Positions 12,142 to 58,845 of a stretch of DNA of 64,000 nucleotides are shown here, one piece after another. This stretch comes from Clostridiales bacterium (lineage in GTDB: Bacteria; Acidobacteriota; Aminicenantia; Aminicenantales; UBA8522). Position 1 is the stretch's first letter; each line of letters starts with the position of its first letter. Position numbers and translations under genes: made by a program. The stretch lies in NCBI GenBank assembly GCA_029907205.1, contig JARYMI010000002.1, forward strand, positions 59,060 to 123,059, read 5' to 3'. The notes under the pieces were generated by a model. It ran no database searches. It saw nothing but the letters and a program-made list of their open reading frames with translations, and was not told where the DNA came from.

Positions 12142-12143
12142 TT

Positions 12144-15100
12144 TCACTTCACGATATTGACGAGCGTTTCCTGGCTTCGTCCAAAGACTTCGGGAGAGTA
12201 CATCTCCTCGGCCTTCGTGCCAGGCAGGACATACGCGCCGAAATTGAGAGCCCGCGCCAGGTAACGATGCGTATGGAGACCCGGTGCGAGGGAATCGGCA
12301 AAAAGAAGAACGCGGTCGTCGTGCATTTCGATGTGGCTGAACCCGTGCCACCATGGCGAAGGCGTGCTGTCCGAGGCGATGATCTCCCCGAGCCGGCGCG
12401 CCGCTTCCTCGCTTTCGGTGATGAAGTTAGGGTTGACCGCATCAAACCCGGCCGGGAGAGGGTCGTCAACGACGACGTAGAGAGATTCCTGCGGCACAGC
12501 CACCTCGACCGTGACCACGACGAGTGAGCCGGCTTTTATCGTTTCAGTGGGCTTGCCACCGCGGTCAAGCGGCTCGATTTTCTTCACGACGGCGATTCCC
12601 TCGTCGCGAGGAACGCCCGGACGAGCCGGCGCATAAGTCAGCCGTGCGCCGTAGTACAAAATCCCTTCTCCTTCCTTACGGATTCTTAGGGGGAGTTCGC
12701 GCTGTCCGCCAGTCGTATCCTCATCACGGGTCTTGAACTCCCTGAAGCCGAAACGGGCGGTCTTGATTTCTCGGCTGGCCGAACTAAATCGTTCTTCCAG
12801 GAGAGTACGACCGGCCAAAGTGACTTTTCCTATAAAATCGGCTGGAACGCGCTCACGGGAGCTGTAAAACTCGTTCAGGCCATAGAAAACATAAAAATTC
12901 TCCTGGGTGGAGCCGAAACGTCCTGAGGATTCCCTCTGTTTGCTCACGAGCCAGCGGGCGACTGAACCGAGAAGCGGATGGTCTTGGCCGGTTTCTATGA
13001 GCGTCTGGAGGATGAGGGCTGTCGTCCGGCTGTTGGATGAGTAGATCCAGCGGCCTTCGCTTCCCTCGTCGTCCTCAAAGTGTGCGCCGCTGGGGCTGAC
13101 CTTGATTTTGTTGAGAAGATCCTGGAGCAGCGTGGCGAGCGCGGCGGGCGAGCCCTTTCCGTGGTGGAGCGCCTTGAGGAGGAGGGTCCGCGCGAAAAGC
13201 GATAGCCTGTCTTTTTCGGCGTAGAGACGTTCAGCAAAGGCGGGCTGGGGTTTCCCTAACAGGCTGAGGACATAGAGGGCATAGGCGCGGGTCGTTTTCC
13301 AGGCACGCTGGCCGAAGGGCTGGCGGCCTTGGCTCCACTCGGTCCGCAAGAAACTGATGAGGTAACCGGCAGCTCTGTCGAGGCGGTCGCGGTCAACCTC
13401 AAACCCCGCTTCCTGGGCCTGGATGAGGGTGAAGGCAGCGTAACAGGTGAGGAAGGGAGACTCGAAGGAGGAATCTGGCCAAGAACTGAACCCGCCGTTT
13501 TCTTTCTGGAAAGCAGCAACCTCGTTCAGGCCTTTGCGGACGAGTATGTCAATATCCTTTTCTTGGAGCGAAGTCAGCTTGAAATCAACGAGGACGCGCC
13601 GGGCAACAACATAAGGAAGGATGGCCGACAGGCGCTGTTCCAGGCAGGCATAGGGGTAGTCTGTGAGATAGTCAAAGCTGCCCTTGAGACTTAGCAGGGC
13701 AGACGAAGCGGCATGCACTTCAAGGCGGCTCTCCTCTGGATAAACGTCATCCGGGACCAAGACCTTCTCCTCGGCGGCCTCTTCGGTTTCGCCAGAAAGA
13801 GCGACTGTTTCTGTCGGCCGGGGAAGATAAACGGGAAGCTTGAGCTCAACGCCGTCGGTCTCGTCGGCCAGGCGGCCTCTGAAGGAGAAAGTGGCGACCC
13901 CCGGCCTATCGGCCTCCAGGCGGAAGAGGACCTCGCGGCTTTCTCCATGCTTGAGGATGAAGCGGCGCGCTTTTGTTTTATCGAGGAGGCGAATGCCAGA
14001 TGCCTCCACGCCAAGGTTGACATCGCCCTTGACTGAGGAGAAGTTGTGGATAACGACCCCTGCCTCAAACATGTCGCCAACACGGCAGAAGCGGGGGAAC
14101 GAAGGCAGGAGGAGGAGCTTCTTGGACACGCGGAAGGAAGTCTCGCTCCGGCCGAAATGAGACTCTCTGGTCTGCGCCACCGCCATGACACGGAAAGTGG
14201 TGAGGTTATCGGGAAGCGTAAAGGTGACGCTGGCTTCTCCGTTTTCATCGGTGAGCAGGGAGGGATTCCAGTATGCAGTCGATTTGAAATCTCCGCGCAG
14301 CTCGACTTCGGTCAGGCCCGGAGCTGCAGCCATTTCTTTCTCTGTGCCAACTCCGCCTCCCGGCTCTTCGCCCTTTTCGCCGTAATCGCGCTGGCCGACG
14401 ACATGAAGCCGGGTTTCTGATGTGCGGACTGAAAGCGGGCGCTCGCCGTAGAAGAACGAGAAGGGGTCGGGAGTCTCGTAGCCGATCAGGTTGAGCACAC
14501 CGAGGTCAACGACAGCGACCGAAAGGCAAGCAGGCAAGCCGGCATCCGAAGAAGAGCTTGCAGAGACCCTGAATTTCAACCTGACGGTCTCCCTTGGCTT
14601 GTATTCGGTCCTGGGGTTTTCAATACTGACCGAGAGCCTCTTCAGAGCTGGGTTTACACTGAGGTTAACATAGCCAATTTTGAAAGAAGGCTGGCCGAGG
14701 TCTTTAAGTCCAACAGCAGAAGTTTCAACGCGGCCATAGACGAGCAGGACGGAGATAAAAACATTCGGGATGTATTCTCGAAGGATGGGGATTTCAATAT
14801 GGCTGGCCGTGCCCTCGATGTCCAAAACCCTGGCTTCTAAAATCGACTCGCGCTCGATGGTAACCAGAGCTTTAGCCCGTTCGTAAGGCGATTTCACCAG
14901 AATTCTGGCGCGGTCGCCAGGCCTGTAGGATTCAGCGTCAGCCACGAGTTCTATGGCATCGTCGTCAGTGCGTTCCCAGGGAACGAAATCACGACCTGTT
15001 ACGTAGAACGAGGTCGTGGTTGTGATCGTATTTTTAAGGCTGTCCAGGGAAGAGGCGAGCAGCAAATAGAAGCCCGATTTGTCGGGAGCCAAGGAGACGG

Positions 15101-18008
15101 TTGCGGCTGACATCCCGGTCAGGACGTCGCGGCTTTCGACCTCCACATCCTCGCGCTCGGTGAGCCAGCGGAAGAGGCCGCCGACGCCCGCCTGGCGGAC
15201 CGACCGCCACTCGCGCCGGACGAGCTTGAGGTTGATTGTGCGGCCGGGAAGGAGAGTGCCATCAGGCAAGGCGGCGATAACATCGACCGAGATGGCCTCT
15301 CCTTTCTTGAGAAAGGAAGTCGATGGCTTGAGCCCGATGGTGAACTCGCCTCGGTGAACCAGAGTCTGGATGCGGTTGGAGATGGTGCGGCGACTCGGGC
15401 TCGTGACTGTGGCTTCGAGGGTGGCAAGGACCGAATCTTTTTCTTTTTCCGGGAGAAGCGGCACCTTGAGGGTGAGTTTGCCTTGATCATTGAGCCTGGT
15501 TTCAGCAGAAGCCAGGAGGCGGCTTTCGGCTGGCGAGGTCTCTTCCTCTCCCCAGTCAATCTCATTGCCGAAAATATAGCCCTCATGGCCAGGCGGAGCG
15601 AAGGAGGTTCGGTTGAGACGGAGATGCCAGGTGACGTCCTGGCCGGCCATGGCTCCCCCGAAGAGATAATTCGCTCGGATTTCGGCTCTGTAGTCGCGGC
15701 TGAAGACGAAGCTTTTCTCAGCGGCCCGGAGGTGAAGTTCAAACTCTGCCGGACGGAAGGCCTCAACACGAAATGAGCCTGAGAACAATACCGGCTTTTC
15801 GCCCGGCAGGCGCGGCCGAAGCTTGGCCGTGATCTGATAATAGCCGAGTGAGGAGTCCTCAGACGTCGTGAAATCAAGGGCAAAAGACCCGAACTTATCC
15901 AGAGGAATCGTGCTTTTAAAGATCCGTTTTTCGAAGGGATCCAGGATTTCGCAATCCAGGGAGAGCGGAGAAGAAGCAGGAGGAGGGGCTGACGGGATCT
16001 GCCACTGACCCTTGACGCTTTCCCTGATGATGCCCTTGATATGGACTTTTTCGCCAGCCCGGTAGATACCTCGTTCGGTAAAAATATATCCTTGCCAGAC
16101 GGCCGGCTCAGGGAACCAGTCGTACGATATCCTGAAGCGGTAGGGGTCGATCCCCGTGCCCCATTCGGACGAGGAGAGGGCCGTGTCGGCGCCCCGGGAG
16201 GCAAAGACCCACTGGCGCGGCTCGGCGTATTCGTCTCGGCTTGAAATGCCGAGTTTCTTCCAGCCGGGCGTTTCGGCCTTGCCAAAGGCGTCGGTTTTGC
16301 CCCGCCATTTAACTGTATTGGCGTCGTCGCGGAGCTCAACGGCTGCATCGGGCACGGGCAGACCGGTCTTAAGCTCGGTGACCCAGATGATGTTGTTATC
16401 AGCTGAGAACTTGGCGCTGATGCCGAGTTCTGTAACCTGAAGGAAGGCTTTTTTATAGCGGTCCCATTTATCTTCAGGGCAATTGGTGTCGACCTGGAGA
16501 AAAAGCAGCCCGGGAGTGTTGGGCGCGGGAAACAGCTCAGAAAGGTCAATGGGAACGGTGCGGCGCTTGTTCCGACCGAGGTTAAGGTTGAGAGTCTTTT
16601 CAACCTGGAAAAACCCGGCGGGAGCGGAAAATTTCTCATCCGGCCAAAAAACCTTGGGCTGACGGAGCAAAGGGATAACAGCGTCTTTGGCGAGGCGAGT
16701 CGCCTGGATGAAGACGCTCTCCTGATTGATAGCCTGGAGGGGATACCGAGGGCCGGGAGCAATCGTGGCTTCGATGACACCGTGGCCGGTGACCATGGAA
16801 ACAGAGGGAGGGAAGGAGCCCGTCGAGAAACGGAGAGAAACGGCCTCGCCCAGCGAGTTGCCAAACTCGTCGGCCAGGTCTGGAGAGAGACGCACCGAGT
16901 AAGATGAGTCCGGCTCGAGCGGGAGAGAAAAATAGAGCACATCGCTGCTGTATTCCCATTCGGAGTAATAATCGGGAATCTCAACAGGCGGGTCGAACGT
17001 GATTTTAGAGACGAAATCTTTGTAAAAAACCTGGTTGGTGAACTTGAATTGAACGGGTTCGCTTGGGGGAAGGTTTTCCGCGTTCTCAAGGCCTATGAAC
17101 CGAAAAGGAGCGAAGGTTTCGAAGCTAAAGGAATGATCTTTTTCCAAGCCAAGAGGGCCTTCTTTGGCAGCTAAGCCCCGTTTGAGGGTGATGAGGCAGG
17201 TTGATCCTGGCGTAAGTTTTTGTCCAGACGACAGAGTGAGGAGCAGGCCATGATCGGGCGGAAGTTCAAGCCTCTCGCTCTTGAGTTTTTCCGCCGGAGG
17301 GTGAGCAATATCGAAGGGGAGAGCTCTCGGCCGACCGGGTTCAGCGCAAGCAGTGGCGGTTGGCGCTTCTGTCCATGAAATGAAACGCGCTGCTTTGTCC
17401 CTATCAATCGGCTGGTTGAAGAGAAGTAGAACTTGGGTATCGAGTTTGACCCATCGCTGTCCATCGACAGGAAAATTCCTGACGAGGCGAGGTTCGATCG
17501 TCTTGAATGACCATATGAAATCGCGCGGAAGAGTGCTGCCGTCGAGGGCAGAAGTTCCTGCCGGCACAGTGACGTTAATTTCAGAGGCAAAAGGGAAGCG
17601 TTTGTCGGGAGCAAAAGCCAATGTCCGACTGCCGATCCACCGGTGCTTGCCGGCTGCTGGAGGGTCGAACCTGAGGAGAGAACGATCTAATGGGGCTTTT
17701 TTTTCGATGGCTTGAAGAGCGACCATTGGCCGGTCGAAAGTGACGACGACAGTCTCGGATTCGTGGGGCGCCGCCGTTCGTCCCTGGGGAGTCGCGCTGA
17801 GGACACGCAGGTCAGTGACAGCCGCGGCAGGAGGTGGCTTCAATGGATTATTTATATTATCCCGATAGGCTCGATCGATTTTATCCGTGCGGGCCGATTG
17901 TCCCGCTTTCCCTGGCTCCTCCTGTTTGCAGCGTTGAAGAGTGAGGACGAAAACGAAAGCGATGAAGAGCCAGGTCATCAGGACAGAAGTGAACTTTATT
18001 TTTCCCAT
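12144..18008 (-). CDS. Bacterial alpha-2-macroglobulin family protein (thioester-containing, 1954 aa)
   Basis: N-terminal signal ending ...LTLQRC; MG domains; thioester motif YPYACLEQ; receptor-binding-like C-terminus. GGAGGTG RBS before the ATG at 18008. Adjacent to pbpC as in the yfhM-pbpC pair. Confidence 0.85.
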   Translation of the reverse strand: MGKIKFTSVLMTWLFIAFVFVLTLQRCKQEEPGKAGQSARTDKIDRAYRDNINNPLKPPPAAAVTDLRVLSATPQGRTAAPHESETVVVTFDRPMVALQAIEKKAPLDRSLLRFDPPAAGKHRWIGSRTLAFAPDKRFPFASEINVTVPAGTSALDGSTLPRDFIWSFKTIEPRLVRNFPVDGQRWVKLDTQVLLLFNQPIDRDKAARFISWTEAPTATACAEPGRPRALPFDIAHPPAEKLKSERLELPPDHGLLLTLSSGQKLTPGSTCLITLKRGLAAKEGPLGLEKDHSFSFETFAPFRFIGLENAENLPPSEPVQFKFTNQVFYKDFVSKITFDPPVEIPDYYSEWEYSSDVLYFSLPLEPDSSYSVRLSPDLADEFGNSLGEAVSLRFSTGSFPPSVSMVTGHGVIEATIAPGPRYPLQAINQESVFIQATRLAKDAVIPLLRQPKVFWPDEKFSAPAGFFQVEKTLNLNLGRNKRRTVPIDLSELFPAPNTPGLLFLQVDTNCPEDKWDRYKKAFLQVTELGISAKFSADNNIIWVTELKTGLPVPDAAVELRDDANTVKWRGKTDAFGKAETPGWKKLGISSRDEYAEPRQWVFASRGADTALSSSEWGTGIDPYRFRISYDWFPEPAVWQGYIFTERGIYRAGEKVHIKGIIRESVKGQWQIPSAPPPASSPLSLDCEILDPFEKRIFKSTIPLDKFGSFALDFTTSEDSSLGYYQITAKLRPRLPGEKPVLFSGSFRVEAFRPAEFELHLRAAEKSFVFSRDYRAEIRANYLFGGAMAGQDVTWHLRLNRTSFAPPGHEGYIFGNEIDWGEEETSPAESRLLASAETRLNDQGKLTLKVPLLPEKEKDSVLATLEATVTSPSRRTISNRIQTLVHRGEFTIGLKPSTSFLKKGEAISVDVIAALPDGTLLPGRTINLKLVRREWRSVRQAGVGGLFRWLTEREDVEVESRDVLTGMSAATVSLAPDKSGFYLLLASSLDSLKNTITTTTSFYVTGRDFVPWERTDDDAIELVADAESYRPGDRARILVKSPYERAKALVTIERESILEARVLDIEGTASHIEIPILREYIPNVFISVLLVYGRVETSAVGLKDLGQPSFKIGYVNLSVNPALKRLSVSIENPRTEYKPRETVRLKFRVSASSSSDAGLPACLSVAVVDLGVLNLIGYETPDPFSFFYGERPLSVRTSETRLHVVGQRDYGEKGEEPGGGVGTEKEMAAAPGLTEVELRGDFKSTAYWNPSLLTDENGEASVTFTLPDNLTTFRVMAVAQTRESHFGRSETSFRVSKKLLLLPSFPRFCRVGDMFEAGVVIHNFSSVKGDVNLGVEASGIRLLDKTKARRFILKHGESREVLFRLEADRPGVATFSFRGRLADETDGVELKLPVYLPRPTETVALSGETEEAAEEKVLVPDDVYPEESRLEVHAASSALLSLKGSFDYLTDYPYACLEQRLSAILPYVVARRVLVDFKLTSLQEKDIDILVRKGLNEVAAFQKENGGFSSWPDSSFESPFLTCYAAFTLIQAQEAGFEVDRDRLDRAAGYLISFLRTEWSQGRQPFGQRAWKTTRAYALYVLSLLGKPQPAFAERLYAEKDRLSLFARTLLLKALHHGKGSPAALATLLQDLLNKIKVSPSGAHFEDDEGSEGRWIYSSNSRTTALILQTLIETGQDHPLLGSVARWLVSKQRESSGRFGSTQENFYVFYGLNEFYSSRERVPADFIGKVTLAGRTLLEERFSSASREIKTARFGFREFKTRDEDTTGGQRELPLRIRKEGEGILYYGARLTYAPARPGVPRDEGIAVVKKIEPLDRGGKPTETIKAGSLVVVTVEVAVPQESLYVVVDDPLPAGFDAVNPNFITESEEAARRLGEIIASDSTPSPWWHGFSHIEMHDDRVLLFADSLAPGLHTHRYLARALNFGAYVLPGTKAEEMYSPEVFGRSQETLVNIVK

Positions 18009-49466: not shown

Positions 49467-50602
49467 TTCTCCTTTAGGATTTTCTCCGCCCCCCGGATGG
49501 AGCTGCCTTTCTCGAAAGCAAAATGGAGATCATCTAATGTCATCTCCAGGGCAGAGAGAGCGGTGATGATATCGAACGCGCCCATGTAACCGAGATGCGC
49601 GATGCGGAAGAATTTCCCCTTGTTTGGGTCCTGGGCACCGGCGATGTACGCCTGGTACTTGGCCTGCATTGTTTTGACGAGCTTGCTGCCGTCGATGCCG
49701 GCGGGCACCTTGACTGCTGTCAGGATGTTGCCCGGGTTCTTGGCCAAAAGCTCAAGCCCGAGCGCTTTTACACCGGCGCGTGTGGCCTCGCCGAGGACGC
49801 GGTGATGCTCGAGCAGTTTCTCCATTCCCAGGTTGCGGATGATATCCAGAGCTTTTTTCTGCTGGATGATGAGCGACACGGCCGGGGTCCAAGGAGTCGT
49901 CTGCTTCTCCAAGTTCTTCTTGGCTTTGCGGGCATCAAAATAGAACTTAGGAAGCTTGGCCGACTCGACAAGCTTCCAGGCCTTGGGGCTGAAAGCGATG
50001 TACGCGAGTCCAGGGGGAATCATGAACGACTTCTGCGAGCCAGCAACCAAAACGTCAACGCTCCACTCGTCCATCGGGCAAGGCGTGGCGCCGAGGCCTG
50101 AAATCCCGTCAACGACGAGGACGGCATCAGTCTTGGAAACGACCTCGCCGTAGCCTTTGATGTCGTAGACGGCGCCGCTCGATGTTTCAGAGAGCGTGGA
50201 GAAGACGGCCTTGACACCGGCGTTTGCTCTGAGCTCTGCGGCAAGCTGGTCTGGAGTAAAATCATCGCCCCATTCCAGGACAACCTCTTTGACTTCGACG
50301 CCGTACGCCTGGCAGATGTTGCCCCAGCGTTCGCCAAACTTGCCCCCGTTGATGGTGATGACTTTGTCGCCAGGACTCAACGTATTGACGACGGCCGCCT
50401 CCATGGCGCCGGATCCAGAAGAGGTCAGGATAAAGACATCTTCCTTGGTGCCGAAAACGTACTTAAGCCCTTCGGAGACCTGCATGAAGATTTCCGAGAA
50501 TTCCGGTGTCCTGTGATGAATGATAGGTTCAGAAGCCACAGCCAACACGTCCGGGGGGATGGGTGTCGGGCCTGGTGAGAGAAGGTAGTATTTCTTTATC
50601 AT
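49457..50602 (-). CDS. Class V aminotransferase, phosphoserine/serine-pyruvate aminotransferase type
   Basis: AGT_1 fold (…GSGSGAMEAAVVN…SQKSFMIPPGLAY…). Co-operonic with serA. Confidence 0.7.
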   Translation of the reverse strand: MIKKYYLLSPGPTPIPPDVLAVASEPIIHHRTPEFSEIFMQVSEGLKYVFGTKEDVFILTSSGSGAMEAAVVNTLSPGDKVITINGGKFGERWGNICQAYGVEVKEVVLEWGDDFTPDQLAAELRANAGVKAVFSTLSETSSGAVYDIKGYGEVVSKTDAVLVVDGISGLGATPCPMDEWSVDVLVAGSQKSFMIPPGLAYIAFSPKAWKLVESAKLPKFYFDARKAKKNLEKQTTPWTPAVSLIIQQKKALDIIRNLGMEKLLEHHRVLGEATRAGVKALGLELLAKNPGNILTAVKVPAGIDGSKLVKTMQAKYQAYIAGAQDPNKGKFFRIAHLGYMGAFDIITALSALEMTLDDLHFAFEKGSSIRGAEKILKENWQ

Positions 50603-50699
50603 ATAAGTCCTCCTTTGTTGATTGAAATATTACTGAGGTTTAAAATGCATCGCCCTTTAAATTAACAAAATTGTCCTGCCTAGTCAATTAAGACAGAGG

Positions 50700-50729
50700 G
50701 GACGGTCCTCGACGAAGACCGTCTCCATT
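50700..50729 (-). terminator. Stem-loop (GGAGACGGTC / GACCGTCCCC) downstream of the M20 peptidase gene
   Basis: 10-bp stem with a 9-nt loop, immediately 3' of the minus-strand CDS ending at 50734. The U-tract is modest. Confidence 0.35.
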
Positions 50730-50733
50730 AAGG

Positions 50734-51864
50734 TCAAACCTGGCGGAAGATTTCGGTGAGAAGCGCCGTCCGCTGGATGAGAGAGGGGAGGAGCATATAT
50801 TCAGTTTCAGAATGGATGCCGTCGCCATCTGGTCCAAGACCGTCGAGAGTGGCTATGCCCAGGTTTGCGGCTATCGATGCGTCAGACCCACCGCCTGTTT
50901 TTCCTTCTTCCAGCGTCATTTCAAGTGAAGCAGCAATTTTCCTGACTTGATGGAGGAGTGTGGCCGAAGGTTTGCTCTTTTCGAGCGGTGGCGTCAAGCT
51001 CTCAATAGAAGATTTCAGCTTGGCTCCCTGGGTTGAGGCCTTCAGCTGCCTCAAAGCATTCGTGATCCTGTTTTTTTGGCCGCTGTCCCAGAACCTGATA
51101 TCCAGGACAGCCCAGGCTGCTTCGGCCACGACGTTGGCTTTCTCTCCGCCGCCTACCTGATTGACGCTCATCGTCACGCCACCCTTGGCCAGCCTTTTCA
51201 AACGCTGGATCTGAACAATAAGCTCCTCAATGGCGTTAACGCCTTTCTCTGGTGAACCGGCATGGGCTGCCTTTCCCTTTGCTTCTAACCTGACAACAAG
51301 GCGGCCTTTGCGCTGGGTCTTAAGAGCTCCTCCAGGGAGGGCAGGCTCGAGACAGAGCACATGAGATGATTTCCTTGCGAGCGGGGCGATTATTTCGTAG
51401 GCAGCCTCACTGCCGATCTCTTCGGCAGAATTGATGAAGACCAAGACTCTTCGCCGAGGACGCAGACCAAGCTGGTGAAGCGCTTTCAAAGCAGAAATGA
51501 CCATGACCAGCCCTGCCTTCATATCCAACACCCCAGGACCATAGACTTTGCTCCCGGAGATGTAGAAGGGCATTTGGACGATCTTGCCAACCGGCCAGAC
51601 AGTGTCGATATGAGTGAGGACAAGAACCGGCCGTTCAACGTCTCCTCTTATTGCTCCTGGATACTCAACGACATAAAAATCACCGATTCCTTTCTGTGGA
51701 AAACGGCTAACGCGCGCGCCGATTTTCCGGAACTCGCTGATGACAAAGGACGCACAGGAATCCACGGCTTTCTTATCCTGTGAAGGAGATTCTCGGCTGA
51801 CTATCTGTTTCAGGAGGTTAGCCATCTCCCCTTGTCGAGATTTAAAATAAAGGTTGAAATCCAT
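50734..51864 (-). CDS. M20-family metallopeptidase (ArgE/DapE/ACY1-like)
   Basis: …LVLTHIDTVWPVG… plus metal-binding Asp/Glu/His pattern and a dimerisation domain. Confidence 0.7.
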   Translation of the reverse strand: MDFNLYFKSRQGEMANLLKQIVSRESPSQDKKAVDSCASFVISEFRKIGARVSRFPQKGIGDFYVVEYPGAIRGDVERPVLVLTHIDTVWPVGKIVQMPFYISGSKVYGPGVLDMKAGLVMVISALKALHQLGLRPRRRVLVFINSAEEIGSEAAYEIIAPLARKSSHVLCLEPALPGGALKTQRKGRLVVRLEAKGKAAHAGSPEKGVNAIEELIVQIQRLKRLAKGGVTMSVNQVGGGEKANVVAEAAWAVLDIRFWDSGQKNRITNALRQLKASTQGAKLKSSIESLTPPLEKSKPSATLLHQVRKIAASLEMTLEEGKTGGGSDASIAANLGIATLDGLGPDGDGIHSETEYMLLPSLIQRTALLTEIFRQV

Positions 51865-51939
51865 GTCGCGCCTCCGGCAGCCCTTACTTTATCACAGCGC
51901 TCCTTTTCTTTCCAGAGCTGCGCCGAATTCAGCAAAATG

Positions 51940-53133
51940 TCAGGTTCGTTTATTTAAAATAGCGCTTGCTTTTTTAAAGACGGCGTCGCCCTTGCGCAGC
52001 AGCCGCCCCAGAGGGAGCTGTTTGAGCTTAATGGCTTGATACTGGCAGATCTCGTGGCAGCAGAGACAGTGGATACAGTTCGACTCGTCTATGCAGGCCG
52101 CATCATCGAGCAAGCTGATAGCCCGAGGCGGGCATATGCTGACGCACTCCAAGCAAGCTTCACAAGCCACCCTCCGGATTTCCGGAATAAGGGTGAGCTG
52201 GTTTTGGATATAAGCGTAGAGGACGGAGGGCAGCCACCTTTTGAAAAAACTGACCGCCACAGCCGAGTGCCGGAAATCCGAAACCACCACATCCTCAAGC
52301 CTCTCGCCCGCAACCTCGATCTTGCGGAAATCGGCGGTGCCAAGGCTTCTCTCGTCGGCAAATACCGTTGTGTAGATAGCGGAGGACCCATATCCGATGA
52401 CCCTGGCCGCGGCCGCATCCAACGCCACTGCGTCGCGACTGGCCAGGATGAGCCCGACCTTCTTGGGCTTACCGGCTGAAGGGCCCTCTCCTTCCATGCC
52501 GACGACGGCATCCATGATGTTGAGCTGCGGCGGAACGCATGAAAACAGATCGACCAGCATCTGAGAAAAGACATCATTCCGGACATAACGCCGGTGATAG
52601 GCCAGCCGGAGGCCGTGAGGGATGACGCCATACATGTTTTTTATGGCTCCGGTGAAGATGGCAAAAGAATGGGTCTTCAATTTGGGGAGGTTTATGATGA
52701 CATCAGCGTCGACGACCGGCCGCGCGATGTACGTCTTTTTCAAGACTTTTCCATGGACAGCGACCTCCACGAAACCTGTCTCTTTGAGATTGACAAGGCG
52801 GACGCCCAACTCATCGCACACGGCCCGGTAGCCGCTCAGGGAAAAACCGTCAGGATGCCGGCTGTAGATATCGTCTCCAACGGTCAGCTCAGCTCCCGAG
52901 TCACTGAGCAACTGCAGGACCTCGCGGGTGAAGGAAGGATGAGTGAGGATGGCCCGCTCAGGTGGAGAAGAAGGGGAGAGATGGTTGATCTTGACGAAGA
53001 CCCGGCTGCCCTGCTTAACGACAGAGCTCAGGCCGCCGAGGCTGTCGAAGATCCGGCGCAGAGCAAGGGAAAGGTCACGGCGGTCGTAAGAAGCGCAGCG
53101 CGAGATGACTACCCTGGATCTGGCCTGCGGCAT
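51940..53133 (-). CDS. DUF362-domain protein fused to a 2x[4Fe-4S] ferredoxin domain
   Basis: …RVVISRCASYD… DUF362 start. C-terminal CEACLECVSICPPRAI…CIHCLCCHEICQYQAI, two CxxCxxCxxxCP motifs. AAGGAGAA RBS before the ATG at 53133. The track ORF begins at an earlier ATG. Confidence 0.6.
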   Translation of the reverse strand: MPQARSRVVISRCASYDRRDLSLALRRIFDSLGGLSSVVKQGSRVFVKINHLSPSSPPERAILTHPSFTREVLQLLSDSGAELTVGDDIYSRHPDGFSLSGYRAVCDELGVRLVNLKETGFVEVAVHGKVLKKTYIARPVVDADVIINLPKLKTHSFAIFTGAIKNMYGVIPHGLRLAYHRRYVRNDVFSQMLVDLFSCVPPQLNIMDAVVGMEGEGPSAGKPKKVGLILASRDAVALDAAAARVIGYGSSAIYTTVFADERSLGTADFRKIEVAGERLEDVVVSDFRHSAVAVSFFKRWLPSVLYAYIQNQLTLIPEIRRVACEACLECVSICPPRAISLLDDAACIDESNCIHCLCCHEICQYQAIKLKQLPLGRLLRKGDAVFKKASAILNKRT

Positions 53134-53316
53134 TCTCCTTGCCAACGCATCCGGCTCTCCCCGAGCCTCTTTCTTGTTCTTTTCCTGAAACATTTTTTTA
53201 TTCTATCTAATTTTAGAGGCGCAAACAAATCACCTCATGCCGCGGCATTTATTAAAAATAGTCTGCCTTTATGTTATAATAATTTAGAAAATCTAGGGCG
53301 ATCGATAAAAGGAACA

Positions 53317-54354
53317 GTGGATCACCTTTCGCGAAGAGATTTCTTGGGCCGGGCTTGGATACTTGTCGGCTCGGGCCTATTCCTGCCCAGTTTCGCGGTT
53401 GGAGCTTGGCGCTCTTTCCCGGCTTTTTCATCCAACAAGGAAAAGCCCGGAGATTATCCCTCTTATCTTTCTTTAGAAAAGTCGGGCCGCCTCGCCGAAC
53501 GAGAGGAAAAGCTTGTCGCCTTTCTCGAAAACTGCCACCTTTGTCCGCGAGACTGCAGAGTCAACAGGCTTAAAGGCGAGATCGGTGTTTGTCAGGCGAC
53601 AGCCCGGGGCAAGATCTCGAGTGCTTTCCCTCATTTTGGTGAAGAGAAGCCGCTTGTCGGCCAGAAAGGTTCAGGGACAGTCTTTTTCTCCAACTGCGGG
53701 CTGAGGTGCGTTTTTTGCCAGAACTACACGATCAGCATCGAGGGCGAAGGGGTAGAAATCTCTGATGACCAACTGGCTGAAACGATGGTCAAGATTCAGG
53801 GCTTCGGCTGCCACAACATCAACCTTGTTACGCCTACCCATTATGTCCCGCATATAGTCCGGGCGCTCCGCCGCGCCATCCGGCTTGGGCTCAAGATACC
53901 GCTTGTCTATAACACGAGCGGTTACGAGAATCTCGAAGTCCTTGGGCTTCTCGATGGTATCATCGACATTTACCTGCCCGACATCAAGTACATGCAGCCT
54001 GCTTTCGCAGCAAAGTATTCTTCTGGCGCCTACAATTATCCGTATTATGCCAAAGCGGCTGTCAAGGAAATGCACCGTCAGGTCGGGGAGCTAAAGCTTG
54101 ACGAGCGCGGCATCGCCCGAAGAGGAGTCATCCTCAGGCATCTCATCTTGCCCAACAGGGTTTCGGGGACGGAGGAATTCATCAAGTTTGTGGCCGAGGA
54201 ACTTTCGACCGCAACATATGTCAACCTCATGAGTCAGTACCGCCCCGAGTACAAGGCCGGCGAATATCCAGATATCAACCGCAGGATCAAACGGAGCGAA
54301 TATCAGGAGGCCTTAGCCTGGGCCAAGAAATACGGCTTGTCTCGTCTTGACTGA
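53317..54354 (+). CDS. Radical SAM protein, PflX / pyruvate-formate-lyase-activase-like, with N-terminal twin-arginine-type signal
   Basis: The track ORF 52594..54354 is antisense to the DUF362 gene over its first ~720 nt. The real gene most likely starts at GTG 53317, AAGGA 5 nt upstream. It reads …DHLSRRDFLGRAWILVGSGLFLPSFAVGAWRS…, then the family N-terminal Cys motif CHLCPRDCRVNR…GVC, then radical SAM CGLRCVFCQN. Confidence 0.65.
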   Translation: MDHLSRRDFLGRAWILVGSGLFLPSFAVGAWRSFPAFSSNKEKPGDYPSYLSLEKSGRLAEREEKLVAFLENCHLCPRDCRVNRLKGEIGVCQATARGKISSAFPHFGEEKPLVGQKGSGTVFFSNCGLRCVFCQNYTISIEGEGVEISDDQLAETMVKIQGFGCHNINLVTPTHYVPHIVRALRRAIRLGLKIPLVYNTSGYENLEVLGLLDGIIDIYLPDIKYMQPAFAAKYSSGAYNYPYYAKAAVKEMHRQVGELKLDERGIARRGVILRHLILPNRVSGTEEFIKFVAEELSTATYVNLMSQYRPEYKAGEYPDINRRIKRSEYQEALAWAKKYGLSRLD

Positions 54355-54392
54355 TGATAGCGCCCTGGGGAGCATCTCCAAGTCCGTGACAG

Positions 54393-54546
54393 TCCTGTGC
54401 TGATAGCAGGGGGCGGGTGGCGCGGTTCGGGGGCCCCCCGCCGCCCCGAGCGTTTGATGCCACTCATCTGCCGATTTTCTAATAAACAAGATAGTCCGCG
54501 AGGGGGCGCCGGGGGTGAACCGCGACAGGACCCGCCCGTTTCACGG
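54393..54546 (+). repeat. ~155-nt GC-rich imperfect palindrome / nested stem-loop element in the intergenic region
   Basis: GTCCGTGACAGTCCTGT…ACAGGACCCGCCCGTTTCACGGA outer pairing; inner GGCGCGGTTC…GAACCGCG; GGGGGCCCCC hairpin. Direct repeat CCCTGGGGAGC (54367) / CCCTGGGAGCG (54569) flanks it. Confidence 0.4.
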
Positions 54547-54642
54547 AAATAGAGATGCAATCCAGAGCCCTGGGAGCGTTGATTTATCATCGCATTTGCC
54601 GTACATTAAGAAGGAAACCTTGATAAAGAATGCAGCGACGAC

Positions 54643-57051
54643 ATGCATGACTTCGCAAGAAACCACATAAGAAAAATCACTAAAGAGCGAGCGGGGCTAA
54701 CCCTTTTTCTCGCTGTTTTTTTATTTTTCGCCACGACAATCACGGTCCTCCCGATACGCGCAGAGGTTTTTTATCCATGGAGAGACGTTTATATCGGAGC
54801 TCTCGAGGGAAAAGAATGGTTTGGCCTCGTCTTGGCCGCTTCTCGGGATTCCGTCTTTGGCTTCCGAATCAGGGTTGTTAAAGAGGGCCGACAAGCAGAG
54901 GGCCATGACTTGTTCTATTTGGTCTCCGAAGTTGGGCCCCACTCTCCTGACGGGCAATACTCCCGTATCAAGGCTGACCTCAGCCTGCCTTTCCACCAGG
55001 CTCAGGAGACTCCTATTCTGATTAAGCACGCTCCAAAATCGGAAACGCTGACCCTGGAATGGTCCAGACAGAATGAAAAAGCGGTTATTGGCCGGATCAG
55101 AGCACCCAAGAACATCGAGCTTCAAATCGTTCACTACTTTCCATGGAATATCAGCGGCGAGTACCGCTTGCTTGGTGACGGGCAGGTTCAAGCTGAGAGC
55201 GGAATCGATAAAAAGCTTCACTACCTCTTTTGGTCGAATAGACAGCCAGATGCCCCCCCTGTGCAAACAGAAAAAGACATCTCGCTTCCTTTTTCAATGG
55301 AGAAGGAGAGGGAACTCTATTTTGTTGCCGGGGTCGGCGAAGACCCGAAAACCCTGAGCAACCAGATCTATCGCTACAAGAACAGCAAAACAATAAACTA
55401 CTTCCTTCTTGAGGAAGGGCGCCGTTACCAGAATAAAAGAGTCAGGGCCGATGGGCTTTTTAAGGGCGTCGCGGAAGCCATAACCAACAACGTCTTCTGG
55501 ATGACCCTTTACCAGCCAGGCCACCACCGGCTCTACACGCCTGCGGGAAGGAACTGGATTTTCCAGCCCGGGGGCCTTCAAGACCACTGGACTGTCTTCG
55601 AATGGGATTCTTTCTTTAGTGCCCTGGAAGCCTCTGTAGAAAGCCCGAAACATGTCCGGGACATTATAGCGTCTGTGCTGGAGACTCAGTATCCGAACGG
55701 GAACATCCCCAACTGGAGGGGTCGGTTCAGCGGAACAGCCGACCGCTCACAGCCTCCCGTGGGTGCTTTCTGTGTGCTCAAACTGTTCGGGAAGATAGGG
55801 GACTTTGACCTTCTCAAGCTCTCTTACCCAAGCTTGAAAAAATGGCACGACTTCTGGAAAGCTCCCAAATCCAACGGCCAAGCCCGTCGTGACGGAAACG
55901 GCGACGGCCTCCTCGAGTGGGGCTCTGACGCTGACCTTGTGTCCACAGCGGTTCCTTCTTGGGAAATCAACGCCGAAGGAAAACAGCGAGCCATATGGGA
56001 ATCGGGACAGGATGACTTGCCAAACTGGGAAGAGGCCTCATTCAACGAGGAGACGGGGACTCTGATGATGAACTGCCTGGATCTCAACTCCCTCTACGCG
56101 CTTGACGCTTATTGCCTCGCCCAGATCGCCAACATCCTGAACCTTCCTGATGACTATGCCCTCTATATTGATGAATACAACCAGATGAAAAGACTTATCA
56201 ACAGCGTCCTGTGGAACGAGCGGGAAAAGTTCTACTTTGACCGGCACTGGGACGGTCGGTTTTCCCAACGCAAGGCGGCTTCAAACTTCTATCCTCTGCT
56301 GGCCCGTATTCCCGACAAAGAGCAGGCCCTGGCGATGATCAAGCGACTCCTCAACCCCAAAGAATTCTGGGGGGACTATATCCTGCCCACCATCTCTCGT
56401 GATGACCCGCTTTTCAAGGAGCAGCAGTACTGGCGCGGCGCAGTCTGGCCGCCGACTAACTATCTCGTCTACCAGGGTCTGAAGGCTTTCGGTTTTGACG
56501 CTGTGGCGGCTGAGTTCGCCCAGAAAAGCGCGGCCCTGTTTTTGCGAAGCTGGGAGAACTTCCAGCTTTGCCCGGAAAATTTTGATTCCCGGACAGGAGA
56601 GGCGGGTGGCCAGCGCTTTCAAACCTGGGGTCCGCTTTTTGCCCTCATCGCCCTCGAGGAATATATCGATTTTACGCCCTGGGAAGGCTTTCGGTTCGGC
56701 ATGCTCAAACCAGAGAAGAAGGGAAAGCTCGTCCGTTTGGCTATCCAGGGCAGGCACTACCAGGTCGAGGTCTCAAACTCCAAGATCAAGCTCATCGAGG
56801 AGGAGCGCGAAATCCTAAAGGCCAATGGTGGCGCCGTTTTCAGGCATTTTCTTTACTCGGAGAACGAAGTCTCTTTCGAAATCAAAACCCTCAAAGCGAG
56901 GGAAGTGGAAATCCATTTCCTTAAAAAAGGAAAATACCAACTCCTTGTTGACAACGAACTCAAAAGAGTTTTTACGGGCCGCTCCGAGAAAATCATAATT
57001 CCCGAAGGCGATCACACTGTCCTCATTCAACTCCTCGAAGCCTTGGAGTAG
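54643..57051 (+). CDS. Large (alpha/alpha)6-barrel glycoside hydrolase-like protein (GH63/GH37-like C-terminal domain)
   Basis: N-terminal TM/signal. The C-terminal half reads …YWRGAVWPPTNYLVYQGL…, a GH63/trehalase-type barrel signature. Confidence 0.55.
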   Translation: MHDFARNHIRKITKERAGLTLFLAVFLFFATTITVLPIRAEVFYPWRDVYIGALEGKEWFGLVLAASRDSVFGFRIRVVKEGRQAEGHDLFYLVSEVGPHSPDGQYSRIKADLSLPFHQAQETPILIKHAPKSETLTLEWSRQNEKAVIGRIRAPKNIELQIVHYFPWNISGEYRLLGDGQVQAESGIDKKLHYLFWSNRQPDAPPVQTEKDISLPFSMEKERELYFVAGVGEDPKTLSNQIYRYKNSKTINYFLLEEGRRYQNKRVRADGLFKGVAEAITNNVFWMTLYQPGHHRLYTPAGRNWIFQPGGLQDHWTVFEWDSFFSALEASVESPKHVRDIIASVLETQYPNGNIPNWRGRFSGTADRSQPPVGAFCVLKLFGKIGDFDLLKLSYPSLKKWHDFWKAPKSNGQARRDGNGDGLLEWGSDADLVSTAVPSWEINAEGKQRAIWESGQDDLPNWEEASFNEETGTLMMNCLDLNSLYALDAYCLAQIANILNLPDDYALYIDEYNQMKRLINSVLWNEREKFYFDRHWDGRFSQRKAASNFYPLLARIPDKEQALAMIKRLLNPKEFWGDYILPTISRDDPLFKEQQYWRGAVWPPTNYLVYQGLKAFGFDAVAAEFAQKSAALFLRSWENFQLCPENFDSRTGEAGGQRFQTWGPLFALIALEEYIDFTPWEGFRFGMLKPEKKGKLVRLAIQGRHYQVEVSNSKIKLIEEEREILKANGGAVFRHFLYSENEVSFEIKTLKAREVEIHFLKKGKYQLLVDNELKRVFTGRSEKIIIPEGDHTVLIQLLEALE

Positions 57052-57836
57052 GCGTGCTTCAGCGTGTCTCCGCGCAGCCCTTGCCTAAGTGCTTCCAGAG
57101 CCAACACTTCCTCGGGCGGGATATTCCCCAAGTTAACGTTGAGCCCAAAACGCAGGATAAGGTCCTGCTGCTGATTCTTGAGGGGAGCTTCCCAGATTAA
57201 ATCATCCACGGCAGTGCCCGCGGCCAGGATGCGATCGATCTCGTCCTCCTTGGTTTTCCCCTCTTGGTCAAAAATGCCGACACCCTTCCCGGCTTCGCGG
57301 GATTCGATGATGACCTTAAAAGCACCAGAATCCAGATCCTCACGGATCAGTTCATGAATAAGCTCGGCCGGAGGAGCTTCTTTGGGATCCTTCTTTCCCA
57401 CTTCTGTGATGACTTTGAAGCCCATGTCGAGGGATTTTTTTATCGCCGCTTTCCGGGCAGGCCGGTCTATCTCGATCGTGCCGTCCGAGACTTCAACTGC
57501 GCTGAACCCTAAGTCGCGCGCCTTTTCAAGATAAGCATCGAGGCTTTTTTGCCATACGGCCACTTCAAGAAAGGTTCCGCCCGGCATGACTTCGATGCCG
57601 GAAGAGACGATCAACTCATTTTTTTCTTTGAGCAGACGCCTCTCATAGAAGGCCGAGGTCCCGAAGGTCAGCTTGATGATGTCGATGTAGTCTCCAGCCG
57701 TTTGAATCAGGTCTTTGAGAAAATAAATGCCCAGGCCCTTGTCTATGACCATGGTCAAGCCTGTCCGCCTGGGTTTTTTGCTCCTCCCCAGGCATGGGAT
57801 GCGGAAGGCTCCATTCCACGCTTTATTCGCCATATT
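57027..57836 (-). CDS. (2R)-phospho-3-sulfolactate synthase (ComA family)
   Basis: MANKAWNGAFRIP…TMVIDKGLG…IDIIKLTFGTS…VEVSDGTIEI… ComA TIM-barrel family pattern. Start at the ATG at 57836. The track ORF is extended upstream. Confidence 0.65.
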   Translation of the reverse strand, partial: NMANKAWNGAFRIPCLGRSKKPRRTGLTMVIDKGLGIYFLKDLIQTAGDYIDIIKLTFGTSAFYERRLLKEKNELIVSSGIEVMPGGTFLEVAVWQKSLDAYLEKARDLGFSAVEVSDGTIEIDRPARKAAIKKSLDMGFKVITEVGKKDPKEAPPAELIHELIREDLDSGAFKVIIESREAGKGVGIFDQEGKTKEDEIDRILAAGTAVDDLIWEAPLKNQQQDLILRFGLNVNLGNIPPEEVLALEALRQGLRGDTLKHAYSKASRS

Positions 57837-58845
57837 CAGCTCCTTTTTGAGATGAGTAACGTTCTGACAGCAGGCCTCCCCAGCAGCGGTCCGGGCTGGA
57901 AAGGACAGAGGCCACAAGGCGGGTATGGCGCGAGCGCGCCAACGTCTCGGCAGCTCTGAGCCTCGCTCTGGCTAAATCGGGATTGTCCAATCCGGGCGCT
58001 GGAACCTTGTCGTAAAGGACGACCGTCTCGGCGAGCTTCTCAGATATGTTGTCGAACAGGGCTTTCGCCCGTCGAGCAGCATTATCCATCCTGCTGAGGA
58101 GAAAAGTGTCCCGGCCTTCTTCGATGCGAGGAAAGATAATCACGACATCAGGATCCTTGAGAGTGTCGAACGGACACTTATAGGAAGAAAGGTCGATAGC
58201 AATTTTCCCGTGCCATTCTGTTCCCTGGTTGGCCGGCAGGGGTGCGGGCCAAAACTCAGAAAAATGGCGCCGGATTGTTTCAATTCTGACGTTGTCCACG
58301 AGCGAACCCATGAACCAGAGAAAGCGGCCTGCCTTGATGGTGAAATGAACGGTCTCGGTCGAAAAGAGTTTTAACCCTTTGGCAAGCCCGCTGAGAAGGT
58401 AGACTGTTTTGCCGCTTCCTGCTCCACCGGCGATGACCACCAGCCTGTTTTTTTTCGCCTGGAAAAGGCCGCAGGCATGGAGGCTGTAAACCTGATGGTT
58501 TCTCTCCAAGAGATAAAGGGCAAAGCGGTAAAAAAAGCCCTGGTTTCCCCACAAGCTGTACCTCAGGTCGGAGGCCCGCCTGGTCAGGCTGACGAAGGGG
58601 CCTCGGAAAAACGCGCGCTGGCCGGAAATGCGGCAGGACGGCTTTGCCCCGGGCACCTCATAAATGCTGATCCGGCCGTCCGGGTTAGAGGGATAAGGGA
58701 TGTTTTTTATTTCTTTGAAATCTGTAAGCAGGGATTTCACTTCAAGCGGCAGGGGAAAGGATAGAAGAAGGGATTTCTCGTTGGAGACGACTCCTACCTC
58801 AGCTTTCAAGACCCTCAGGCCTTGGCGGTGCATTCTTTCAGGCAC
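57823..58845 (-). CDS. P-loop kinase-like protein, HPr-kinase C-domain-like (HprK-related)
   Basis: Walker A LVVIAGGAGSGKT in a ~340-aa protein. Layout resembles the HprK C-terminal kinase domain. Its stop is 13 nt from the comA start. Confidence 0.45.
   Translation of the reverse strand: MPERMHRQGLRVLKAEVGVVSNEKSLLLSFPLPLEVKSLLTDFKEIKNIPYPSNPDGRISIYEVPGAKPSCRISGQRAFFRGPFVSLTRRASDLRYSLWGNQGFFYRFALYLLERNHQVYSLHACGLFQAKKNRLVVIAGGAGSGKTVYLLSGLAKGLKLFSTETVHFTIKAGRFLWFMGSLVDNVRIETIRRHFSEFWPAPLPANQGTEWHGKIAIDLSSYKCPFDTLKDPDVVIIFPRIEEGRDTFLLSRMDNAARRAKALFDNISEKLAETVVLYDKVPAPGLDNPDLARARLRAAETLARSRHTRLVASVLSSPDRCWGGLLSERYSSQKGAEYGE

Follow-up and report, generated by a model that had tools for sequence, protein, structure and literature searches.

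Can a radical SAM enzyme carry a genuine export signal and, if so, where would it do its chemistry? To our knowledge, enzymes of this class are taken to be confined to the cytoplasm; they depend on SAM, on an electron donor of very low potential and on shielding from oxygen. The question is raised by a locus in a 64,000-nucleotide stretch of DNA from a bacterium assigned to the Aminicenantales (the window, as we call this whole stretch), where a predicted radical SAM protein opens with MDHLSRRDFLG, continues with a 19-residue uncharged stretch and then reaches its Cys motifs. The original prediction described this N-terminus as a twin-arginine-type signal and left two options, export of the folded enzyme with its clusters or a cryptic or regulatory N-terminus.

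The radical SAM gene and its start codon

The gene occupies positions 53317..54354 of the + strand and encodes 345 amino acids, from a GTG start to a TGA stop at 54352-54354. In the ORF reading its frame is open from 52594, for the sole reason that it runs antisense through the DUF362 gene on the opposite strand. From the start of that gene (53193) to the Cys motif, the frame offers just two canonical start codons, GTG 53317 and TTG 53344; there is no in-frame ATG, and no second GTG, ahead of the motif. The TTG is codon 10 and lies inside the signal, and its use would still keep the hydrophobic region. It does not coincide with the start of the homologues, which begin M-x-x-x-S-R-R at the same place as the GTG. 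The GTG originally proposed was therefore the right call, and the sole alternative downstream does not refute the signal.

A Shine-Dalgarno-like AGGA (53310..53313, + strand) ends 3 nt before the GTG, which is a short spacing. Further upstream is a promoter-like TTAAAA-17 nt-(TG)TATAAT with 10 of 12 matches (53252..53280, + strand). The predicted TATAAT box is present, although its hexamer lies at 53275-53280, one base off the 53274 given for it. Since the region holds one such promoter-like site and 1.1 are expected by chance from shuffled sequences, we note it as a position only. On the other side of the gene, 55 nt past the stop, there is a GC-rich hairpin with 13-nt arms and an 11-nt loop and without a T tract (54409..54445, + strand). 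An Rfam scan of positions 50000-58000 found no RNA family.

Radical SAM core and family identity

The protein is a member of the radical SAM superfamily by motif, by PF04055 and by fold. The motif C127-G-L-R-C131-V-F-C134 (CX3CX2C, within CGLRCVFCQN) is encoded at 53695..53718 on the + strand, and PF04055 matches the protein with 44.1 bits against a cutoff of 29.5. The AF2 model (pLDDT 79, pTM 0.80) is a partial TIM barrel, for which Foldseek returned PFL-AE, LIAS, viperin and HydE. The best solved fold is PFL-AE (3c8f/3cb8; E 1e-8, TM 0.72 on target) at 15% identity; a sequence search of the PDB found no close solved structure. Ahead of the core lies a four-Cys motif, C73-x2-C76-x3-C80...C92 (CHLCPRDCRVNR; 53533..53592, + strand), a putative auxiliary [4Fe-4S] site whose cysteines probably bind a second cluster. 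Both Cys clusters (CxxCPRDCxVNR and CGLRCVFCQN) are thus found as originally described. The four N-terminal cysteines and the CX3CX2C motif are each kept in 50/50 signal-bearing and 31/31 signal-less relatives, and the CX3CX2C motif is also invariant in 52 homologues; conservation of all 8 Cys is 100% with and without the signal.

The homologue search returned 8000 sequences at E<=1e-10, and many homologues of 64-84% identity carry the JGI label 'putative pyruvate formate lyase activating enzyme' (PflX-type). Assignment to the glycyl-radical activases (PflA, PflC, NrdG) is not supported by the NCBIfam models, with which the protein stays far under the cutoffs: it scores 16.5 versus 231.75 with TIGR02493 and 28 versus 131 with TIGR02495, and lower with the others. 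No glycyl-radical enzyme gene was found among 21 window ORFs searched against Pfam, the ten nearest flanking ones included, or among the called genes of three related loci (L001-L003). The AmmeMemoRadiSam identity that had been suggested does not hold either: TIGR04337 gives 19.8 bits against a cutoff of 220, and only over the N-terminal Cys region. AMMECR1 and MEMO1, named as partners to look for, were absent from the window neighbours scanned with Pfam and from the called genes of L001-L003.

The N-terminal twin-arginine signal

The sequence S5-R6-R7-D8-F9-L10-G11 (53329..53349, + strand; R6 and R7 are cga and aga at 53332-53337) matches the Tat consensus S/T-R-R-x-F-L-K near the N-terminus. 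The hydrophobic (h) region that follows, A13-W31 (AWILVGSGLFLPSFAVGAW; 53353..53409, + strand), is uncharged and runs up to R32, as expected of a moderately hydrophobic Tat h-region (about 12-20 residues) and a c-region that often includes a basic residue. V28-G29-A30, just before R32, is a possible signal-peptidase site. A variable polar linker, R32-D46 (53410..53454, + strand), connects the signal to the core, which starts at Y47-P48-S49-Y50-L51. In the AF2 model, residues 11-42 have pLDDT <50 and form no helix. The TIGR01409 Tat HMM scores 16.0 bits on the protein against a cutoff of 16.7, while the PF10518 Tat HMM finds no match on it and reaches 16.5 against a cutoff of 22.7 on one homologue. 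There is no Cys ahead of C73, and the lipobox pattern [LVI][ASTVI][GAS]C is absent. A search for other RR-type N-termini across the whole window found none.

Close homologues, a set of 120 Aminicenantes sequences of 64-89% identity, of which 100 are full-length, carry the signal, of the form [ST]RRxFL, near residue 6 in 100 cases; the remaining 20 are shorter calls that start inside or after it. Among the full-length sequences RR is present in 100/100, with Ser at -1 in 77 (Ser or Thr in 83), Phe at +3 in 94 and Leu at +4 in 77 (Leu or Ile in 86), and a 52-sequence alignment shows no change at R6 or R7. The residues flanking the RR motif and the next ~30 vary freely. Uncharged runs span a median of 15 residues, with R or K at the end in 82 of the 100; helix-breaking Pro/Gly is kept, and the extension as a whole ranges from 37 to 61 residues (median 45). 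Within the Aminicenantes clade, no clear AxA cleavage site is conserved. Judged from these alignments, the pattern shows a signal that is translated, conserved and under selection rather than present by chance. Whether homologues share the extension had been posed as a check, and the orthologues do carry the same one. The description of the N-terminus as a signal of the twin-arginine type, here carried by a radical SAM protein, is thus supported; the alternative of a cryptic or regulatory N-terminus found no support.

Signal-less and lipobox forms in the wider family

More distant family members, represented by sequences chosen at 50% identity and by 31 genome loci, lack the extension and start 3-10 residues ahead of the YPSYL block. 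This absence marks the extension as an add-on to a cytoplasmic-type core and does not make it spurious; at the level of sequence, the comparison shows the signal to be a clean addition to an otherwise ordinary PflX-type core that exists elsewhere without it. We considered that the signal might be confined to Aminicenantes and rejected this, as hundreds of signal-bearing relatives occur in more than ten phyla, including Acidobacteriota, Gemmatimonadota, Latescibacterota, Ignavibacteriales, Bacteroidota, Omnitrophota, Calditrichota, Planctomycetota, Thermodesulfobacteriota, Anaerolineae and others. These forms fall into two clades of a rough neighbour-joining tree.

One multi-phylum subclade (L061-type) has RR or KR in 115 of 116 members, and in 98 of the 116 a [GAS]C (CAGC, LAGC, FAGC, FSAC) follows 12-34 residues after it, succeeded by a polar tether rich in K, P, S and E. 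A lipobox is also present in about 20 genome loci of relatives. Lipid modification at a lipobox occurs solely after translocation, so the lipobox Cys and tether of these 98 relatives would be meaningful only once the protein has crossed the membrane.

Neighbouring genes and Tat machinery

The divergent gene (51940..53193, - strand) encodes a protein of 417 amino acids without a signal peptide, in which a DUF362 domain (PF04015, 201.8 bits against a cutoff of 24) is joined to a 2x[4Fe-4S] ferredoxin with two CxxCxxCxxxC motifs and Fer4 matches at residues 336-391. The fusion and the divergent layout are as predicted, but the standing of this protein as a constant partner is not: it recurs as a neighbour in 6 loci from Aminicenantes and once in a Bacteroidales locus (L057), is separated from the radical SAM gene by a class-V aminotransferase gene in L001 and L002, and is absent from L003. 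We therefore downgraded it as a dedicated partner. The aminotransferase, with an RR signal of its own, lies just upstream in L001, L002, L013 and L015. Downstream of the radical SAM gene, a GH63/MGH1-like glycoside hydrolase of 802 amino acids has a Sec-type signal peptide (54643..57051, + strand; PF22422, 166.8 bits), and a gene of this kind comes after the radical SAM gene in 9 further loci, all grouping with the signal-bearing Aminicenantes.

Among 87 loci, 6 have the gene next to a second radical SAM enzyme with an RR signal, of the AmmeMemoRadiSam type, and next to a membrane protein, the 'fused MFS/spermidine synthase', whose SAM-binding domain falls on the outer face in a rough topology count. 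True TIGR04337 members adjoin relatives of the gene in L025, L040, L049, L058, L066, L072, L027 and L007; these adjacent proteins score 320-367 bits and have RR or KR signals, some with a lipobox. When the MFS/spermidine synthase fusion and the AmmeMemoRadiSam neighbour were compared with the window by tblastn, there was no match. A partner or substrate gene common to all signal-bearing loci was sought and not found, and three such loci (L005, L090, L091) have no neighbours in common with the others.

In L019, a locus that falls into the signal-bearing clade of the window protein, a TatA/E gene is found at a distance of 7 kb from the radical SAM gene; it was the one hit that tblastn gave for TatA and was then confirmed (PF02416, 67 bits). 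Because of this gene and the upstream aminotransferases with RR signals, the Aminicenantes lineage appears to use Tat. The window has no Tat machinery genes, and tblastn with an approximate E. coli TatC query found no TatC in the 1.3 Mb of DNA searched.

Discussion

The conserved twin-arginine signal, together with the lipoprotein-like relatives, suggests that this enzyme is probably sent outside the cytoplasm. On balance we favour the reading that the first ~31 residues are a genuine Tat signal and that the enzyme would travel folded and loaded with its clusters; the export itself, the cleavage and the site of the chemistry are what we infer. According to this model, the protein would fold in the cytoplasm and there receive its radical SAM [4Fe-4S] cluster (C127/C131/C134) and probably the second cluster (C73/C76/C80/C92). 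The presence of two Fe-S clusters is the usual reason for export by Tat over Sec. The Tat translocase would then recognise S-R-R-D-F-L and the protein would cross the cytoplasmic membrane, after which signal peptidase may free the Aminicenantes form, perhaps by cutting after A30, or an uncleaved signal may hold it at the membrane. In many other phyla, the lipobox Cys and its long polar tether would lead to a lipid anchor on the outer face. For the chemistry of the exported enzyme there are two most likely options. It may take place on the far side of the cytoplasmic membrane, with SAM either travelling along in the active site or coming from a membrane partner, or the enzyme may act on a bound partner before export and the two may then be exported jointly. 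Radical SAM chemistry requires SAM and a reductant near -450 mV, neither of which we know to be present outside the cytoplasm, and [4Fe-4S] clusters are oxygen-labile.

It is this difficulty with SAM and reductant that disappears if the leader is Tat-like but serves no export, and is instead a binding site for a maturation chaperone or a membrane tether, so that the enzyme works on the side of the cytoplasm, where both are available. The vestigial twin-arginine leader of the cytoplasmic nitrate reductase NarG offers a precedent: there, too, a cofactor enzyme that could remain in the cytoplasm has an N-terminus of the RR type. The scores just below the curated Tat HMM cutoffs, the lack of a conserved AxA site in the Aminicenantes clade and the signal-less DUF362-ferredoxin, a possible electron donor, would all fit. 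However, vestigial twin-arginine motifs lose the hydrophobic region, the helix breakers and the trailing basic residue, and here, unlike in NarG, all of these are retained, with the hydrophobic region and, in relatives, the lipobox intact and conserved. The lipobox and tether at the same position in the subclade described above also argue against a leader that serves no export. As for a tether, an N-side RR signal-anchor would put the C-terminal domain outside, and the hydrophobic stretch, with a median of 15 uncharged residues that include G, S and P, lacks the length and strength that a stable transmembrane helix needs. We consider a leader of this kind unlikely, while regarding it as the most serious of the rivals.

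Periplasmic SAM would not be needed either if the enzyme modified or activated a tightly bound, signal-less partner in the cytoplasm and carried it through Tat, as an escort spent after one turnover. Co-transport of signal-less partners by Tat is established (hydrogenase large subunits, DmsB), the closest fold is that of the PFL-activating enzyme, which has a protein substrate, and signal-less Fe-S neighbours such as the DUF362-ferredoxin exist. Nevertheless, no signal-less partner gene is conserved over the signal-bearing loci, the window ORFs scanned yielded no glycyl-radical enzyme, and a lipid anchor on an already spent enzyme seems wasteful; this idea appears to us distinctly less probable than a leader without export. 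Least credible by far is a miscalled start, in which translation would begin downstream of the RR and the apparent signal would be an untranslated leader. The 3-nt spacing between AGGA and GTG might hint at it, but the only other in-frame start, the TTG at codon 10, retains the hydrophobic region, RR, F and L are conserved as protein in 100 homologues while their neighbours drift, and most homologues begin with ATG four codons ahead of SRR.

Among known systems, PflA (3c8f, 3cb8) and related activases are the best structural match and have the CX3CX2C at a similar place, close to the N-terminal end of the partial TIM barrel, but the window protein has an extra four-Cys motif ahead of the core. 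The known glycyl-radical enzyme activases are, as far as we know, cytoplasmic and without a signal. With the AmmeMemoRadiSam enzyme (TIGR04337) it has in common an N-terminal CxxCPxxC...C motif and an activase-like core, yet it lacks the C-terminal CxxC...CxxC ribbon present in the TIGR04337 neighbours. Hydrogenase small subunits, NrfC, DmsA/DmsB and Rieske proteins likewise have S/T-R-R-x-F-L and clusters loaded in the cytoplasm, and among such Tat-exported Fe-S proteins cleaved, anchor and lipoprotein variants all exist. These are electron-transfer or molybdo-enzyme subunits, however, and we know of none among them that needs SAM as a co-substrate or a low-potential one-electron donor on the far side of the membrane.

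In the literature searched, no paper dealt with radical SAM enzymes that bear a signal or with the MFS/spermidine synthase fusion in the membrane. A related case among radical SAM maturases of exported substrates is the HXS anti-phage system, in which the periplasmic component is reported to be an effector matured by a radical SAM enzyme (PMC13128918). There, too, radical SAM chemistry is linked with a periplasmic end product, but the component reported as periplasmic is the effector, whereas here the signal sits on the radical SAM enzyme itself.

With the neighbouring genes in mind, one may tentatively speculate further, although we hold this broader reading to be doubtful, that radical SAM enzymes of a widespread group carry out their reactions beyond the cytoplasm. 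According to this speculation, the window family and the signal-bearing AmmeMemoRadiSam branch would be exported by Tat with their clusters, often lipid-anchored, and the adjacent 'fused MFS/spermidine synthase' protein would bring SAM, or a group derived from it, across the membrane. If true, SAM-dependent radical chemistry would have its first periplasmic pathway here, with a substrate in the envelope or outside the cell. Export signals are conserved in two distinct radical SAM families over many anaerobic phyla. Either SAM-radical chemistry can be sustained in the periplasm of these bacteria, in which case a SAM supply, an electron supply and an envelope substrate must exist there, or Tat is used in an unrecognised way, for a one-shot enzyme or the escort of a modified partner. 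Both outcomes would alter the annotation of such genes and where their substrates are sought.

Results

The signal-bearing N-terminus and its conservation

The plus-strand reading frame of the radical SAM gene is open as far back as 52594, because it lies antisense to the neighbouring DUF362 gene. Only two canonical start codons, GTG 53317 and TTG 53344, lie in frame between the beginning of that neighbour (53193) and the cysteine motifs. A Shine-Dalgarno-like AGGA (53310-53313, plus strand) precedes GTG 53317, from which 345 residues are encoded (53317-54354). The protein opens with M-D-H-L-S-R-R-D-F-L-G (residues 1-11) and continues through the uncharged stretch AWILVGSGLFLPSFAVGAW (A13-W31, with R32 next) and a polar linker to D46 into a conserved core with YPSYL at its front, which carries a four-cysteine motif (C73-x2-C76-x3-C80...C92) and the radical SAM motif (C127-x3-C131-x2-C134). 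The original prediction of a radical SAM gene with a twin-arginine (RR) N-terminus and cysteine motifs, divergent from a DUF362-ferredoxin gene, thus describes what is present in the sequence. The proposed upstream TATAAT box also exists, with the position 53274 wrong by one base; it belongs to a promoter-like TTAAAA-17-TATAAT ending at 53280, and the one such site found in this region equals the chance expectation. A GC-rich inverted repeat (54409-54445; 13-nt arms, 85% complementary, 11-nt loop) begins 55 nt 3' of the stop codon, with no T tract after it and no Rfam match.

Searching 5.8 billion proteins gave 8000 matches, the best 120 of which share 64-89% identity with the window protein; those that are named are Aminicenantes. 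The original question of whether homologs share the extension is answered by [ST]RRxFL in 100 of these 120, with the first arginine at residue 6 in 75; the remaining 20 are shorter gene calls beginning within or past the signal. Among the 100 motif-bearing sequences RR is universal, preceded by S (77) or T (6) and followed by F at +3 (94) and L at +4 (77). The uncharged stretch that follows has a median length of 15 residues, with R or K at its end in 82 sequences, and the extension ahead of YPSYL (37-61 residues) is variable apart from the motif features. When 52 sequences are aligned, no position ahead of P48 is invariant except R6 and R7. An AlphaFold model has a confident core (pLDDT 79, pTM 0.80) and disordered residues 11-42, and the curated Tat model TIGR01409 falls just short of its cutoff (16.0 vs 16.7). 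Together these features form the pattern of a signal peptide followed by a linker. Its conservation agrees with the start proposed at GTG 53317 and fixes the start codon, so that a miscalled start as the origin of the motif is scarcely credible.

Family assignment

The sole Pfam match is Radical_SAM (44.1 bits). The best match among solved folds is pyruvate formate-lyase activating enzyme (E 1e-8, 15% identity); a sequence search of the PDB returned no relative, and all curated activase models score far under cutoff. The suggested AmmeMemoRadiSam identity does not hold (TIGR04337 19.8 vs cutoff 220). In JGI annotation, homologs carry the PflX name 'putative pyruvate formate lyase activating enzyme', and no glycyl-radical enzyme gene occurs among 21 window ORFs scanned with Pfam, the ten nearest flanking genes included. 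We class the protein among uncharacterised radical SAM enzymes of the PflX type, with a putative extra four-cysteine site.

Spread of the signal

Most of the best 150 representatives at 50% identity have about 300 residues and begin 3-10 residues ahead of YPSYL, so the core exists as a plain cytoplasmic-type protein; three carry an N-terminal signal (two RR, one Sec-like). A scan of genomes in which each species was represented once yielded 80 loci, about 49 with an RR-type N-terminus and 31 without. Signal-bearing MAGs are labelled Aminicenantes, other Acidobacteriota, Gemmatimonadota, Latescibacterota, Ignavibacteriales, Bacteroidota, Omnitrophota, Caldithrix, Pirellulales, Deltaproteobacteria/Syntrophorhabdaceae and Anaerolineae. 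Thermodesulfobacteriota, Dehalococcoidia and Nitrospirota supply the forms that lack the signal, together with one Aminicenantes MAG, whose paralogue (locus L052, 2942-3832) means that the phylum can hold both forms. In a rough neighbour-joining tree the Aminicenantes signal clade is separate from a large multi-phylum signal clade, and the signal-less clade sits near the former; this crude placement implies two gains of the signal, or a loss. All eight cysteines are kept in 50 of 50 signal-bearing and 31 of 31 signal-less sequences, so the two forms are unlikely to differ in chemistry. One family member, P0124 (L009, 6864-9083), has a Sec-like rather than RR signal (MKSCFRWAALGLCPFLPGVLAAG...), and its gene adjoins a divergent EamA-family transporter gene.

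In many members of the multi-phylum clade a cysteine stands precisely where the hydrophobic stretch ends, in lipobox context: ...LAPLLAGC-DQG (L061), ...SALAAC (L054), ...VLAGC (L032, L041), LLKGC (L037, L049), LLKAC (L066, L072) and LQLTGC (L053). Behind it runs a long tether rich in P, S, T, E and K. A second database search, seeded with the L061 protein, gave 120 further clusters, 116 with an N-terminal extension. RR or its variant KR is present in 115 of these 116, and [GAS]C follows it by 12-34 residues in 98 (CAGC, LAGC, FAGC, FSAC and others), with K after the cysteine in most.

Neighbouring genes

The DUF362 protein, fused to two ferredoxin-type cysteine motifs (51940-53193, minus strand), had been taken for a partner. 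This is weakly supported at best: in six signal loci of the Aminicenantes clade its gene and the radical SAM gene are 0.2-4.6 kb apart, and L003 lacks it. In a Bacteroidales MAG (L057, 7807-8904, minus strand) a DUF362 protein has an RR signal of its own (MNKINRRNFILTSVTGAAGIFF), 7 bp from a signal-bearing radical SAM gene; unlike it, the DUF362-ferredoxin of the window has none. Downstream, a GH63/MGH1-like glycoside hydrolase of 802 aa with a Sec-type signal peptide (54643-57051, plus strand) and a conserved mature N-terminus, E(I/V)xYPWK, recurs in 10 loci including the window, all grouping with the Aminicenantes signal-bearing clade. Since these genomes are closely related, their synteny says little on function. 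ComA (phosphosulfolactate synthase, 300 bits) and then a 340-aa protein that matches no Pfam family (57027-58845, minus strand) are kept downstream of the glycosidase in related loci of the clade. Elsewhere in the window (9700-18008, minus strand), a 1954-aa bacterial alpha-2-macroglobulin adjoins an 884-aa PBP1c-type transglycosylase/transpeptidase, a familiar, periplasmic pairing.

In four loci the radical SAM gene is preceded on its own strand, at a distance of 120-290 bp, by a gene for a class-V (PLP) aminotransferase of 437-453 aa that has an RR signal itself, e.g. MNLTTDRRSFLKSLGLAVGSL (L001 6547-7860; L002 6568-7881; L013 7138-8499; L015 8567-9880); the corresponding place in the window has no such gene. 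These signals also show the motif in use on other cofactor enzymes of the lineage. The window itself holds no evidence of Tat machinery. A 69-aa TatA/E gene (L019 3012-3221, plus strand; PF02416, 67 bits) does lie 7 kb away from the family member in L019, a locus that falls with the Aminicenantes signal clade and whose radical SAM protein is 61% identical to that of the window; no TatC turned up in the 1.3 Mb of DNA searched.

Across phyla, two kinds of gene recur, with signal-bearing members only. One encodes a polytopic membrane protein of 760-860 residues with a spermidine-synthase domain (NCBIfam 'fused MFS/spermidine synthase' 44.7 and 61.5 vs cutoff 40; Pfam Spermine_synth 89-99 bits). 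The other encodes a further radical SAM protein, a true AmmeMemoRadiSam enzyme (320-367 bits). Both accompany the radical SAM gene as a three-gene module in six loci (L025, L040, L049, L058, L066, L072; for example L040 3772-8441). The membrane protein is found in these and in L020, L056 and L064, nine in all, and an RR/KR signal on the AmmeMemoRadiSam enzyme in the same six, L027 and L007, with a lipobox also in three of the eight. A second AmmeMemoRadiSam copy in L051 has a short MRRFF... N-terminus, that of L059 has no clear signal, and that of L037 ends at a contig edge. Neither gene is present in the window, and L005, L090 and L091 have none of the neighbours common to other signal-bearing loci. 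By a crude hydropathy and positive-inside count, the membrane protein has 7 helices, a soluble domain and 7 helices, with its N-terminus inside; its (decarboxylated-)SAM-binding domain would therefore face outside the cytoplasm, which is a lead, not a result.

Discussion

We consider it probable that the N-terminus is a genuine Tat signal and that the enzyme is moved across the membrane. It would fold and take up its clusters in the cytoplasm and then cross, loaded. In Aminicenantes it would afterwards be soluble or held by its signal, and elsewhere anchored by lipid. That the signals are functional is argued most strongly by the lipoprotein-type variants, since a lipobox is put to use only once a protein has passed through the membrane. 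Twin arginines, lipobox and tether together would be hard to explain on a cytoplasmic protein.

The main objection to export is biochemical, because we know of no source of SAM outside the cytoplasm, nor of low-potential electrons. A leader without export function, like that of NarG, would avoid this difficulty; by that analogy the window protein would stay inside, a reading we think unlikely. SAM might instead leave in the active site, to serve a single turnover or to be regenerated as a cofactor, or it might come from a partner in the membrane, for instance the spermidine-synthase fusion. Chemistry might also precede export, on a partner with which the enzyme is then exported jointly; this escort variant appears more doubtful still.

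In the full-text literature, a scope with most subscription journals outside it, we found no description of a radical SAM enzyme that itself carries an export signal, and annotation pipelines may already flag such N-termini silently. The nearest system (PMC13128918) has a radical SAM enzyme mature an effector which then works in the periplasm; there the periplasmic part is the effector, whereas in the window family the signal is on the enzyme itself. For this family of exported enzymes, if such they are, enzyme and signal each belong to a familiar class; what is unfamiliar is their combination, its breadth and its companion genes.
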